IMG/VR virus record: IMGVR_UViG_2531839368_000014
Source of the DNA: a virus
Lineage: Duplodnaviria; Heunggongvirae; Uroviricota; Caudoviricetes
Length of the DNA: 4,169 nt
Reading direction: 5' to 3' (one strand)
Part shown: positions 1-4,169 of the stretch, piece after piece
How positions within the stretch are numbered: the stretch's first letter is position 1
Layout: every line of letters begins with the position of its first letter
Notes under the pieces: model-generated
What the model saw: the letters and a program-made list of their open reading frames with translations, nothing else
Told to the model about the DNA's origin: nothing
Database searches by the model: none
Made by a program: the position numbers and the translations under genes

Positions 1-33
1 GCTTCCATCGGAAACGATGATCTGGCAGCCTGA
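1..33 (+). CDS. transposase orfB, C-terminal fragment (5' partial, continues left of the window)
   Basis: Open frame from the window edge to TGA at 31..33, translating ASIGNDDLAA; it lies just inside the IS right inverted repeat. Too short to judge independently of the IS context. Confidence 0.5.
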   Translation, partial: ASIGNDDLAA

Positions 34-75
34 GTTCACAGATAAAACACTCTCCAGGAAACCCGGGGCGGTTCA
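1..75 (+). mobile_element. 3' end of an IS3-family insertion sequence (IS629/IS1203-like by recollection); right inverted repeat about 41..75 ending in ...GGTTCA
   Basis: Seen in sequence: the reverse complement of 41..75 (TGAACCGCCCCGGGTTTCCTGGAGAG...) matches 4096..4121 (TGAACCGCCCCGGAAATCCTGGAGAC...) at 22 of the first 26 positions, with TG...CA termini typical of IS3-family inverted repeats. Frame 1 of 1..33 reads ASIGNDDLAA-stop, consistent with a transposase C-terminus. The IS629-like assignment is from memory and not verified. Confidence 0.75.
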
Positions 76-439
76 CTTTCGCATGGTGCTTAAACCGTGG
101 CGCGAGAGACGCAGTCTTTCCCAGAATGCACTCAGCCACATGTGGTACAGCGAAATCAGTGAATACCTCATCAGCAGGGGGAAATCGTTCGCTACTTCAG
201 CATGGGTAAAAGATGCTCTCAAACACACATACCTCGGTTATGAAACCAAGGACCTGGTTGATGTCGTAACCGGCGAAATCACTACTATCCAGTCGTTACG
301 CCATACCTCCGATCTTGGTACCGGAGAGATGTATGTCTTCCTGTGTAAGGTTGAAGCCTGGGCGATGAATATTGGCTGCCACCTGACTATTCCACAGAGC
401 TGCGAGTTCCAGCTGCTGCGTGACAAGCAGGAGGCGTAA
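17..439 (+). CDS. NinB/YbcN-family phage protein, apparently 5'-disrupted; the first ~20 codons (17..75) are IS-derived and the first prophage-derived in-frame ATG is at 83
   Basis: The ORF runs 17..439 with stop TAA 437..439 overlapping the ninE ATG (TAATG). It sits immediately upstream of ninE, as ybcN/ninB does in DLP12-like and lambda-like nin regions. A motif RERRSLSQN resembles my recollection of lambda NinB (RNRSLDQN). The IS boundary at 75 falls inside the ORF. Family call is from synteny plus a remembered motif. Confidence 0.5.
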   Translation: MIWQPEFTDKTLSRKPGAVHFRMVLKPWRERRSLSQNALSHMWYSEISEYLISRGKSFATSAWVKDALKHTYLGYETKDLVDVVTGEITTIQSLRHTSDLGTGEMYVFLCKVEAWAMNIGCHLTIPQSCEFQLLRDKQEA

Positions 440-609
440 TGGCTACACCGCTTATTCGTGTCATGAACGGACACATCTACAAAGTACCAAATCGTCGTAA
501 GCGTAAACCTGAGCTGAAGCCATCCGAAATACCAACACTGCTCGGATATACCGCCAGCCTGGTTGATAAAAAATGGTTGCGACTGGCAGCAAGGAGGAAT
601 CATGGCTGA
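439..609 (+). CDS. ninE: NinE-family protein (56 aa)
   Basis: ATG 439 preceded by AGGAGG at 429..434; stop TGA 607..609. Translation [56 protein letters not shown]; length and the basic C-terminal WLR..ARR pattern fit NinE as I recall it. Missing from the ORF track only because it is short. Confidence 0.75.
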   Translation: MATPLIRVMNGHIYKVPNRRKRKPELKPSEIPTLLGYTASLVDKKWLRLAARRNHG

Positions 610-892
610 TTTGAGAAAAGCAGCGCGTAGTCGGGAATGCCAAGTAAGAATCCCTGGCGTATGTAATGGCAACCCTGAAACGTCTGTACTGGCACATATC
701 CGGCTGACTGGATTGTGCGGCACCGGTACCAAACCGCCAGACTTGATTGCCACCATTGCATGTTCTGCCTGCCACGACGAAATCGACCGCCGCACACATT
801 TTGTCGATGCTGCATATGCAAAAGAATGCGCGCTGGAAGGTATGGCGAGAACACAGGTTATCTGGCTGAAAGAGGGGGTTATTAAGGCGTGA
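602..892 (+). CDS. ybcO: YbcO-like DUF1364 protein (putative Cys-rich metal-binding nuclease, 96 aa)
   Basis: ATG 602 preceded by AAGGAGG at 591..597; overlaps the ninE stop by 8 nt. Translation from 602 ([23 protein letters not shown]...CSACHDEID...) matches my recollection of E. coli YbcO almost residue for residue. The track ORF starting at 563 is a 5' extension with no ribosome-binding site. Confidence 0.85.
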
Positions 893-1251
893 ATACCTAC
901 AGCATCACATTACCCTGGCCTCCGAGCAATAATCGCTACTACCGGCATAATCGCGGGCGCACGCACATCAGCGCAGAAGGGCAGGCATACCGTGATAACG
1001 TCGCCCGAATCATCAAAGGCTCCATGCTGGATATCGGCCTGGCTATGCCAGTGAAAATCCGTATTGAGTGCCACATGCCGGATCGCCGTCGCCGTGACCT
1101 GGATAATCTGCAAAAAGCCGCTTTTGACGCACTCACCAAAGCAGGTTTCTGGCTGGATGATGCTCAGGTCGTTGATTACCGTGTTGTGAAGATGCCCGTT
1201 ACCAAAGGTGGGAAGCTGGAGCTGACCATCACCGAACTGGGGAATGAATGA
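889..1251 (+). CDS. rusA: RusA Holliday-junction resolvase (120 aa), GTG start
   Basis: Translation [26 protein letters not shown]...[19 protein letters not shown]...ELGNE is near-identical to E. coli RusA as I recall it. Start GTG 889..891 overlaps the ybcO stop (GTGA); G-rich stretch AGAGGGGG upstream at 871..878. Confidence 0.9.
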
Positions 1252-1388
1252 TGTTTGAGTCTTATATGGCAGAACGTCTTCGCCACCGCTGGATGCGCCT
1301 GCGCTTATATCGTTTTCCTGGTTCTGTTTTGACCGATTACCGGATACTGAAGAATTACGCCAAAACACTGAAAGGAGCTGCCGCATGA
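1248..1388 (+). CDS. ylcG: YlcG-like small protein (46 aa)
   Basis: Tandem ATG at 1248 and 1251 overlapping the rusA stop; stop TGA 1386..1388 overlaps the next ATG. Translation [46 protein letters not shown] resembles DLP12 YlcG and occupies the same slot between rusA and the Q-position gene. Start could be 1251. Confidence 0.65.
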
Positions 1389-2074
1389 ATACCCAATATT
1401 TACAGTATGTCCGCGAGCAACTCATTGTGGCTACCGCTGATTTGAGCGGAGCAACGAAAGGACAGCTTGAAGCCTGGCTGGAGCATGCACAATTTGATAC
1501 TGGTACATACAAACGAAAGAAGCCGCGCATTCTGGATGAGGTAACTGGCAGGATGATTACGCTGGATAATCCGCCGATTTCCGGTAAGCAGTCGTACGCA
1601 AAAGGTTCATCCATTGCACTGGTCAGCCAGGTTGAGTTCTCAACCTCGTCATGGCGCCGCGCGGTTCTGTCTCTCGAAGAACATCAGAAAGCGTGGTTGC
1701 TGTGGAGTTACAGCGAAAGTGTTCGCTGGGAACATCAGGTCACCATAACGCAGTGGGCATGGAGCGAGTTTAAGACTCTGTTGGGTACCAGGAAAATTGC
1801 AGGTAAGACACTGGAACGTTTGAAGAAGTTGATCTGGCTGGCGGCACAGGATGTGAAGAACGAGCTGGCAGGGCGTAAGACCTATGAATACCAGGAGCTG
1901 GCATCACTGGTGGGAGTGACATCAAAAAACTGGTCTGAGACATTTACTGAACGCTGGGTTGCAATGAAACACATTTTTCTACAGCTTGATAGCCAAGCTT
2001 TATTGCTTTTAACGAAAACACGTTCAAAACAAAAGACCACATTTTCACAGCAAGATATTGCAAAACTGGATTAA
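1385..2074 (+). CDS. putative late-gene antiterminator in the Q position (229 aa), not lambda-Q type
   Basis: Last gene of the nin-region chain, followed by a promoter/terminator intergenic region and then the lysis cassette, the canonical Q position. AGGAG at 1373..1377 seven nt upstream of ATG 1385. The protein has no cysteine, so it cannot carry a lambda-Q-like zinc ribbon; a helix-turn-helix-like stretch lies near residues 170-190 (YQELASLVGVTSKNWSETF). Assignment is positional. Confidence 0.5.
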   Translation: MNTQYLQYVREQLIVATADLSGATKGQLEAWLEHAQFDTGTYKRKKPRILDEVTGRMITLDNPPISGKQSYAKGSSIALVSQVEFSTSSWRRAVLSLEEHQKAWLLWSYSESVRWEHQVTITQWAWSEFKTLLGTRKIAGKTLERLKKLIWLAAQDVKNELAGRKTYEYQELASLVGVTSKNWSETFTERWVAMKHIFLQLDSQALLLLTKTRSKQKTTFSQQDIAKLD

Positions 2075-2086
2075 AAATCATATATT
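2058..2086 (+). promoter_or_regulatory. candidate sigma70 late promoter (PR'-like): TTGCAA - 17 nt - TATATT
   Basis: -35 TTGCAA at 2058..2063 and -10 TATATT at 2081..2086 with 17-nt spacing, straddling the Q stop codon (2072..2074), where PR' and the qut site lie in lambdoid phages. Hexamer match only; no expression data. Confidence 0.35.
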
Positions 2087-2142
2087 TTATGTAAATCTGA
2101 TATTTTGCCAATGTTGTACGCACTGGCAGTAATCCAAATTCA

Positions 2143-2176
2143 AGCCCGAGGTTTAAAGCCTTGGGCTTTTCTGTTT
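2143..2176 (+). terminator. intrinsic terminator-like hairpin (9-bp stem, 7-nt loop) followed by a T-rich tract
   Basis: AGCCCGAGG (2143..2151) pairs with CCTTGGGCT (2159..2167) with one G-U pair, loop TTTAAAG, then TTTTCTGTTTCT. Lies roughly 50 nt downstream of the candidate promoter. Confidence 0.45.
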
Positions 2177-2255
2177 CTGAACGGTGAGTAGCCTTCCAAC
2201 CTACCCCAGCCAGGGGGTCTTCAGCTGTTGAGTTGATATTGCTTAGCCCTCTGTT

Positions 2256-2278
2256 GCCAGCTACATGCTGGCTTTTTT
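2256..2278 (+). terminator. intrinsic terminator (tR'-like): GCCAGC-TACAT-GCTGGC followed by TTTTTT
   Basis: Perfect 6-bp GC-rich stem (2256..2261 with 2267..2272), 5-nt loop, then six T at 2273..2278. Located between the Q-position gene and the holin, as tR' is in lambda. Confidence 0.6.
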
Positions 2279-2395
2279 ATTCCAGGCTTGTGGGGAGCAT
2301 CAACTCCGTGCTTTGTCGTTAAATTACCCCGTGAGCCTGATTTCTGACATTTAACGTCCCGGCCTTTTGTCGGCGGCGAAACATTGGCTATTCAT

Positions 2396-2701
2396 ATGCA
2401 CGAAAAAGAGAGCCTTGCCGGAGCGTTCTGGCTCGTTTTGCTGATCATCGCAGGTTGGGGCGGTCTGGTCCGCTACCTGATAGATGTGAAGCAGAGTAAA
2501 GCAACGTGGAGTTGGATAAATGCTCTGGCTCAAATAGTGGTATCAGGATTCACCGGTGTTATTGGTGGCCTGATCAGCATCGAAAGTGGATTCAGTATTT
2601 ACATGATTCTCGCGACAGCGGGGATTAGTGGTGCGATGGGTTCGGTTGCACTGACGTACTTCTGGGAACGACTGACAGGGGTGAAAAATGCAAAATCTTA
2701 A
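2396..2701 (+). CDS. putative holin (three predicted transmembrane segments, about 101 aa), not lambda S-like
   Basis: Small hydrophobic protein with three hydrophobic stretches (AFWLVLLIIAGWGGLV; INALAQIVVSGFTGVIGGLISI; IYMILATAGISGAMGSVAL) and a short charged C-terminus, directly upstream of the endolysin and overlapping it by 14 nt. First ATG is at 2396; the track start at 2384 is an in-frame TTG four codons upstream. Sequence is unrelated to lambda S as I recall it. Confidence 0.6.
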   Translation: MHEKESLAGAFWLVLLIIAGWGGLVRYLIDVKQSKATWSWINALAQIVVSGFTGVIGGLISIESGFSIYMILATAGISGAMGSVALTYFWERLTGVKNAKS

Positions 2702-3164
2702 TCCTCAGCGTAAAGCCTTCCTCGATATGTTGGCGTGGTCAGAAGGAACGGATAACGGGCGACAACCGACACGTAACCACGGTTATGATGTTATTGTTGG
2801 CGGCGAACTGTTTACTGATTACTCCGATCACCCTCGCAAACTTGTCACGCTACACCCCAAACTCAAATCAACAGCCGCCGGACGTTATCAGCTTCTTTCA
2901 CGCTGGTGGGATGCTTACCGTAAACAGCTTGGTTTGAAAGACTTCTCCCCCAAAAGCCAGGACGCAGTGGCATTGCAGCAGATTAAAGAGCGTGGTGCTT
3001 TACCTATGATTGATCGCGGTGATATCCGTCAGGCAATCGACCGTTGCAGTAATATCTGGGCTTCACTGCCGGGCGCTGGTTATGGTCAGTTCGAGCATAA
3101 GGCTGACAGCCTGATTGCAAAATTCAAAGAAGCTGGCGGAACGGTCAGAGAGAGTGAGGTATGA
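2688..3164 (+). CDS. R: lambda R-type endolysin (lytic transglycosylase, 158 aa)
   Basis: Translation [20 protein letters not shown]...[20 protein letters not shown]...[27 protein letters not shown]... is near-identical to lambda R as I recall it, including Glu19 in the AWSEG motif. AGGGG at 2676..2680 upstream of ATG 2688; stop TGA overlaps the Rz ATG. Confidence 0.92.
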
Positions 3165-3622
3165 GCAGAATAACCGCGATTATCTCCGCTCTGCTCATCT
3201 GCATCATCGTCTGCCTGTCATGGGCTGTTAATCATTACCGTGATAACGCCATTACCTACAAAGCCCAGCGCGACAAAAATGCCAGAGAACTGAAGCTGGC
3301 GAACGTGGCAATTACTGACATGCAGATGCGTCAGCGTGATGTTGCTGCGCTCGATGCAAAATACACGAAGGAGTTAGCTGATGCGAAAGCTGAAAATGAT
3401 GCTCTGCATGATGATGTTGCCGCTGGTCGTCGTCGGTTGCACATCAAAGCAGTCTGTCAGTCAGTGCGTGAAGCCACCACCGCCTCCGGCGTGGATAATG
3501 CAGCCTCCCCCCGACTGGCAGACACCGCTGAACGGGATTATTTCACCCTCAGAGAGAGGCTGATCACTATGCAAAAACAACTGGAAGGAACCCAGAAGTA
3601 TATTAATGAGCAGTGCAGATAG
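3161..3622 (+). CDS. Rz: Rz spanin, inner-membrane subunit (i-spanin, 153 aa)
   Basis: N-terminal transmembrane segment ([20 protein letters not shown]) followed by a charged coiled-coil-like periplasmic domain; near-identical to lambda Rz from memory. ATGA overlap with R. Confidence 0.9.
3381..3563 (+). CDS. Rz1: Rz1 spanin, outer-membrane lipoprotein subunit (o-spanin, 60 aa), embedded in the +1 frame of Rz
   Basis: Lies wholly inside Rz in a different frame. AAGGAG at 3368..3373 seven nt upstream of ATG 3381. Signal peptide with lipobox (LVVVGC), then the proline-rich run [15 protein letters not shown]; matches lambda Rz1 from memory. Confidence 0.85.
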
Positions 3623-3647
3623 AGCTGCCCATATCGATGGGCAGCTC
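3622..3647. terminator. perfect 11-bp inverted repeat (GAGCTGCCCAT-ATCG-ATGGGCAGCTC) between convergent Rz and bor; candidate bidirectional terminator
   Basis: Perfect palindrome sitting exactly between the Rz stop (3620..3622) and the bor stop (3654..3656 on the minus strand). Flanking T/A tracts are weak, so terminator function is an inference. Confidence 0.4.
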
Positions 3648-3653
3648 ATGCAA

Positions 3654-3947
3654 TTATTGTGAGCAATACACACGCGCTTCCAGCGGAGTATAAATGCCTA
3701 AAGTAATAAAACCGAGCAATCCATTTACGAATGTTTGCTGGGTTTCTGTTTTAACAACATTTTCTGCGCCGCCACAAATTTTAGCTGCATCGACAGTTTT
3801 CTTCTGCCCAATTCCAGAGACGAAGAAATGGTGGGTGATGGTTTCCTTTGGTGTTACTGCTGCCGGTTTGTTTTGAACAGTAAACGTCTGTTGGGCACAT
3901 CCTGTAATAAGCAGGGCCAGCGCAGTAGCGAGTAGCATTTTTTTCAT
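3654..3947 (-). CDS. bor: Bor outer-membrane lipoprotein (lysogenic-conversion, serum-resistance family, 97 aa)
   Basis: Minus-strand ORF translating MKKMLLATALALLITGCAQQTFTVQNKPAA...; lipobox LITGC; near-identical to lambda Bor from memory; convergent with Rz as in lambda. Confidence 0.9.
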   Translation of the reverse strand: MKKMLLATALALLITGCAQQTFTVQNKPAAVTPKETITHHFFVSGIGQKKTVDAAKICGGAENVVKTETQQTFVNGLLGFITLGIYTPLEARVYCSQ

Positions 3948-4095
3948 GGTGTTATTCCCGATGCTTTTTAAAGTTCGCAGAATCGTATGTGTAGAAAATT
4001 AAACAAACCCTAAACAATGAGTTGAAATCTCATATTGTTAATATTTATTAATGTATGTCAGATGCGAAGGATCGTCACTGTATTCCCGGATTAAC

Positions 4096-4169
4096 TGAAC
4101 CGCCCCGGAAATCCTGGAGACTAAACTCCCTGAGAAAGAGGTAAACAGGATGACTAAAAATACTCGTTT
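4096..4169 (+). mobile_element. 5' end of an IS3-family insertion sequence (IS629/IS1203-like by recollection); left inverted repeat about 4096..4121, element continues right of the window
   Basis: TGAACCGCCCCGGAAATCCTGGAGAC at 4096 is the inverted counterpart of the repeat at 41..75. It is followed by AGAGG at 4137..4141 and ATG 4150 opening MTKNTR..., which I recall as the N-terminus of IS629-type orfA. Confidence 0.75.
4150..4169 (+). CDS. transposase orfA, N-terminal fragment (3' partial)
   Basis: ATG 4150 with a ribosome-binding site 8 nt upstream; open to the window edge (MTKNTRF...). Only 6-7 codons are visible. Confidence 0.5.

Follow-up and report, generated by a model that had tools for sequence, protein, structure and literature searches.

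The whole stretch of viral DNA analysed here (Caudoviricetes; IMG/VR record IMGVR_UViG_2531839368_000014), referred to as the window, is 4,169 nucleotides (nt) long and carries part of the late control region of a lambdoid prophage. Its central gene encodes a protein of 229 amino acids (aa) with no cysteine, four histidines and ten tryptophans in its translation, which RefSeq labels "bacteriophage antitermination protein Q". Genes for NinB/YbcN-like, NinE, YbcO, RusA and YlcG proteins lie on its 5' side, as named by Pfam, NCBIfam, PHROG and RefSeq annotation, and its start codon overlaps the stop codon of ylcG in the sequence ATGA. On the 3' side there follow a late promoter, terminators, and genes for a holin, a lambda-R-like lysozyme and Rz with an embedded Rz1, and then bor on the opposite strand. 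These neighbours define the lambdoid Q slot, so the descriptive part of an earlier note on this DNA, that a cysteine-free 229-aa protein sits where the late antiterminator belongs, stands. The gene is almost certainly an allele of the Q gene of phage 82 (Q82 family, PF06323) accompanied by its cognate late promoter pR'82, in a DLP12-like prophage of Escherichia coli O157:H7.

The evidence that carries this assignment is the identity with the phage 82 gene. Over 690 nt, the window gene shares 98.4% nucleotide identity with Q of GenBank X92588.1 ("Bacteriophage 82 orf33 ... rus, orf45, and Q genes"), where the product, annotated "phage 82 Q antiterminator" (CAA63332.1), is likewise encoded by a 690-nt coding sequence and is 229 aa long. 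The two proteins align without gaps and share 225 of 229 residues; the four substitutions (Q204E, K211R, T218A and D224N) are conservative and all fall in the C-terminal tail beyond the helix-turn-helix (HTH). The phage 82 protein also has no cysteine, and its gene is preceded by the same ribosome-binding site (RBS) and by rus and orf45/ylcG. The gene order of the phage 82 record (orf151, ninE-like, orf96, rus, orf45, Q) is matched in the window. The earlier statement that the protein is longer than Q82 was mistaken, as the lengths are equal. The alleles differ in their setting, since one belongs to phage 82 and the other to an O157 prophage flanked by copies of the insertion sequence (IS) IS629.

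Family searches agree with this identity. The protein matches Pfam PF06323 (Phage_antiter_Q) with 316.3 bits against a cut-off of 25 (E 1.4e-94), residues 4-220 being aligned to positions 1-217 of the 220-position profile, and it matches PHROG 304 ("anti-termination protein Q-like") with E 1.5e-108. No NCBIfam model matched, and no Pfam, NCBIfam or PHROG match fell outside the Q antiterminator families. Three such families are recognized, namely Q21 (PF06530), lambda Q (PF03589) and Q82 (PF06323) (PMC9388147; PMC7171158). With 98% of its residues as in phage 82 Q and PF06323 matched over the full length, the window protein is of the classical Q82 type. The suggestion of a less-studied Q family was therefore right in that the family is not that of lambda, and wrong in that it is the classical Q82 family itself. 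The gene is common, with matches in 1357 of 5426 complete E. coli genomes (about a quarter) and at least 99% identity in 697 of them.

The absence of cysteine had been taken to mean that the zinc-binding motif of lambda Q cannot form, which is correct for a protein with none. Its meaning can be judged from an alignment of 58 Q82-family members, which reach down to 17% identity and come from the 172 cluster representatives that HMMER yielded in a search of the whole library. Five of the 58 contain no cysteine (the window protein and four others, each at least 63% identical to it), and the remaining members contain one to eight each. No column of this alignment is more than 55% cysteine, and no conserved CxxC pair was found in it. 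At an assumed E. coli average of about 1.16% cysteine, approximately 7% of proteins of 229 aa are expected to lack the residue, so its lack here is unremarkable in itself. In an alignment of 24 lambda-Q family members (A3), by comparison, C118, C121, C144 and C147 are invariant. As judged from these alignments, the four-cysteine zinc site is a feature of the lambda-Q family and its absence is the norm of the Q82 family.

The best-conserved motif of the Q82 family is AWL.YCY (alignment A2, reference positions 104-109), with Y109 the same in all members and W104 in almost all; position 108 is commonly cysteine and is serine in the phage 82 clade. Further near-invariant residues of the family are R10, A16, W126, L152, Q155, W191, D202 and L206.

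The late promoter at the end of the gene is of the sigma70 type and also of the phage 82 kind. The published pause signal of 82 pR' consists of a -10-like repeat with an extended -10, GCC at +15 to +17 and U at +25, with pausing at +25/+26 (PMC5001585), and the Q-binding element (QBE) lies between -35 and -10 (PMC4914094). The window has TGaTATTTT at 2098-2106 and, directly after it, GCC at 2107-2109, with the -10-like repeat TATTTT at +9 to +14 (2101-2106). The start site (+1) is placed at A2093, the standard 7 nt past the -10 hexamer, on the basis of the published position of GCC. A 14-nt sequence is directly repeated here, once at the promoter -10 (2075-2088) and once at the pause element (2093-2106). 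Seven Q82-type phages, with Q proteins 62-99% identical to that of the window, show little variation from the -35 through the spacer, the -10 and the initial transcribed region to the pause element, and a hairpin with a T-run comes next in each of the seven. X92588.1 stops at the Q stop codon, and the window promoter was judged against the worded descriptors of 82 pR', by which phage 82 has a late promoter of the same kind. A full-text literature search for the sequence TGATATTTTGCC returned unrelated papers only. Pausing in lambda differs in position, at +16/17 as against +25/26 for phage 82.

Two features of the opposite strand were observed at the promoter. Minus-strand TTGCAATATCTTGC (2050-2063) conforms to the consensus for CII binding, TTGY-N6-TTGY, and shares bases with the pR' -35; with one match against 1.06 expected by chance, the site is weak when taken alone. 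A CII site and "paQ" are annotated at the equivalent position in the phage 434 record. A minus-strand promoter-like sequence, TTGGCA-16-TAAAAT, lies at 2111-2084.

A mechanism can be proposed from the studies of phage 82 Q, whose antitermination activity was reconstituted in vitro, depends on the QBE and the pause, and is stimulated by NusA (PMC4914094; PMC5001585). Carried over to the window allele, RNA polymerase would initiate at pR' (+1 about 2093), sigma70 would re-bind the -10-like repeat at +9 to +14, and the complex would be held at +25/+26. Q would bind its promoter element and engage the paused complex near the beta-flap with the help of NusA. It would then ride with the polymerase past the terminators at 2142-2178 and 2256-2279, both of which stand between pR' and the holin gene, so that lysis and other late genes would be transcribed. 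The closing of a "nozzle" is known for Q21 and lambda Q, and its use by Q82 is an acknowledged question (PMC9388147).

The features on which this reading rests, together with matches in related loci, are collected in Table 1.

Table 1. Features of the Q and late promoter region, with isrJ matches in other loci (positions are those of the window unless a locus is named).
Feature	Position	Strand	Basis
ylcG, 46 aa, translationally coupled to Q via ATGA	1248..1388	+	NCBIfam NF033498, E 5e-23; orf45 of phage 82
RBS AGGAG of Q, 7 nt 5' of ATG	1373..1377	+	read from sequence; counterpart is the RBS at 1621-1625 of X92588.1
Q82-type late antiterminator gene, ATG..TAA, stop included, 229 aa / 690 nt	1385..2074	+	open reading frame, Pfam, PHROG, identity with X92588.1
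pR'82 -35 hexamer TTGCAA, within the last codons of Q	2058..2063	+	promoter scan; invariant in seven Q82-type phages
-35/-10 spacer, 17 nt, inferred site of the QBE	2064..2080	+	literature placement; many invariant columns in alignment A1
pR'82 -10 hexamer TATATT	2081..2086	+	promoter scan
sigma70-dependent pause element: extended -10-like TGaTATTTT (+6..+14), then GCC (+15..+17)	2098..2109	+	published descriptors, direct repeat, conserved in A1
Predicted pause positions +25 (T) and +26	2117..2118	+	counted from +15 = G2107
First intrinsic terminator past pR', 12-base-pair stem then T-rich tail; ends leader RNA of about 80 nt	2142..2178	+	terminator scan, RNA fold, sub-threshold Rfam isrJ match
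Second intrinsic terminator, GCCAGC...GCTGGC then T6	2256..2279	+	terminator scan, RNA fold
Holin, first late gene, presumed read-through target	2384..2701	+	Pfam PF16083, PHROG 785
isrJ match in Gifsy-1	L005:1234-1308		Rfam
isrJ match in a related locus	L007:1233-1309		Rfam
isrJ match in a related locus	L008:1249-1322		Rfam

The structure of the protein was approached by prediction. A search of the Protein Data Bank (PDB) with its sequence gave no matches even at E <= 10. An AlphaFold2 model built from the 58-sequence alignment has a mean predicted local distance difference test score (pLDDT) of 86.8 and a predicted template modelling score of 0.74; residues 81-225 are mostly above pLDDT 90 and residues 21-80 are poorly defined. 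Helices are predicted at 82-95, 99-109, 115-133, 140-162 and 169-176, the last followed by a turn of three residues and a long helix from 180. Helix 169-176, the turn and the helix from 180, modelled with pLDDT above 90, support the C-terminal HTH that had been suspected from the letters. Resemblance of this fold to known antiterminators is already in print, since AlphaFold models of 82Q and lambda Q have been reported to resemble AlpA (Wen et al., 2022; PMC9371919).

The known proteins to which the window protein is compared differ from it in various ways. Lambda Q (PF03589; PDB 4MO1, 7UBN) shares its genomic slot and regulatory role, but has 207 aa and the zinc site formed by C118, C121, C144 and C147, which the 229-aa window protein does not have. 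The window protein gave no match to PF03589 at E <= 0.01. When the alignments of the two families were compared with hhalign, a weak probability of 10% was obtained, and the only aligned stretch was the HTH region (Q82 163-202, lambda Q 151-195); at this probability, sequence homology of the Q82 and lambda-Q families is not claimed. AlpA of Pseudomonas aeruginosa (PDB 7XYB) resembles the window protein in being free of zinc and in having an HTH near the C-terminus, through which a promoter element is read. It is 13% identical to the window protein, and it is encoded on the chromosome and controls a pathway of programmed cell death rather than acting as a lambdoid late-gene switch. Q21 (PF06530) shares slot and function in lambdoid phages; the window protein has no Pfam match to that family, and Q21 was not among the structure-search matches of its model.

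The earlier note had also raised the alternative that a different regulator occupies the Q slot, for example a sigma-like protein or an HTH activator that binds DNA and has no role in antitermination. The HTH of the protein would suit such a replacement, as would its lack of sequence similarity to lambda Q (BLASTP E 3.9, not significant). The fold of the model speaks otherwise. Among 350,542 chains searched with Foldseek, the top matches were the lambda Q chain 7ubn_Q (probability 0.98) and the AlpA chain 7xyb_G (probability 0.93), with the rest at or below 0.21, and a fold search of BFVD returned only one Q82-family member. That the two closest structural neighbours are antiterminators counts against a regulator of another kind. 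The profile searches gave the same answer, as the confident match to a non-antiterminator family by which a reading as a Q antiterminator might have fallen was sought in Pfam and PHROG and came back negative, all matches there being to Q antiterminator families. Above all, the protein is 98% identical to phage 82 Q, whose antitermination was reconstituted in vitro, and this identity effectively refutes the idea of a replacement regulator, which is left with a very small probability.

An alternative of a different kind concerns expression, and it arises from the prophage in which the gene lies. Window positions 76-4169 occur with 100% identity as a single uninterrupted stretch in an E. coli chromosome of the O157 lineage, and the same genome has an IS1203 copy whose right end matches positions 1-75. 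This IS629/IS1203 right end has a counterpart at 4096-4169, where the left end of a second, like-oriented copy is recognized by its inverted repeat and the start of orfA (MTKNTRF). Position 76 is where the ninB/ybcN-like gene is cut short, so that the listed open reading frame 17..439 starts within the IS end. In other O157 genomes, IS are found at different sites of the same DLP12-like prophage. In NZ_CP022050.2 (L010) the flanks hold ren, emrE, ybcK ... ybcV, ybcW, ylcI and nohD. By these flanking genes the prophage is the O157 counterpart of the cryptic prophage DLP12 of K-12; emrE, ybcK ... ybcV, ybcW and nohD are genes of that locus. K-12 carries quuD at the Q slot, and the presence of a Q82-type Q/pR' module at this place is a case of module swapping. 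With IS ends at both window edges, IS elsewhere in the same prophage of related O157 genomes, a truncated gene upstream and the flanks of a cryptic locus, the intact Q gene may be a silent remnant of a defective prophage, either unexpressed or no longer serving a lytic programme. This is a real but somewhat doubtful possibility, because the Q reading frame is uninterrupted, copies at least 99% identical occur in 697 complete genomes, and pR' with its pause element is preserved whole, as are the terminators and the lysis genes.

The assignment to phage 82 Q with its promoter has itself to be weighed against several points. The IS ends and the truncation of the ninB-like gene mean that early transcription into Q may be interrupted and that the prophage is probably defective. 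The activity of the window allele is something we infer from phage 82 Q, and no solved Q82 structure by which the model could be validated was found in the PDB sequence search or the literature. The gene is presumably expressed in the IS-flanked prophage, and the IS interruption bears on that expression and not on the identity of Q; the silent-remnant explanation, too, leaves untouched what the Q protein is.

Other features of the region are readily described. The lysozyme gene (2688-3164, plus strand) is labelled glycoside hydrolase family 24 by RefSeq and had no Pfam match at E <= 0.01; we take it to be nearly identical to lambda R. The minus-strand open reading frames across Q (1770..1943, 1882..2040, 1944..2123 and 910..1614) were judged most likely spurious, no search for homologues or family matches having been made with any of them.

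The RNA expected from pR' can be related to a known small RNA. Window positions 2090-2169 (plus strand), from pR' to the first terminator, matched Rfam isrJ with 30.4 bits, which is below its gathering score of 37. The genuine IsrJ of the Salmonella prophage Gifsy-1 scores 100 bits, and isrJ was also matched above threshold in Klebsiella phage KO-TP1 and Enterobacter phage CobraSix. In Gifsy-1, KO-TP1 and CobraSix the matches all start near the position that aligns with +1 of a Q82-type late promoter. IsrJ would accordingly seem to be the leader RNA left when transcription from a Q82-type pR' terminates, analogous to lambda 6S RNA or StxS. AntQ of Gifsy-1 is annotated as similar to REGQ_BP82 and has a pR'82-like promoter downstream, the short transcript of which is IsrJ; it differs in having its late promoter separated from Q by an inserted isrK-orf45-anrP module. 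The insert (L005 365-1250) comprises isrK, a C4-like antisense RNA with its targets and an antirepressor-like gene, and the 3' end of the latter recreates the usual end of the Q gene, carrying the -35.

The window protein is thus already known, since it copies a textbook regulator almost exactly, and as a discovery it has little weight, for the gene is common and the regulator has long been studied. The interest that remains is general and concerns the structure of Q82 and the question of the closed nozzle, for neither of which the window offers anything special. The useful outcome is a correction: to have no cysteine and to be 229 aa long is normal for the Q82 family and is no mark of a new regulator.
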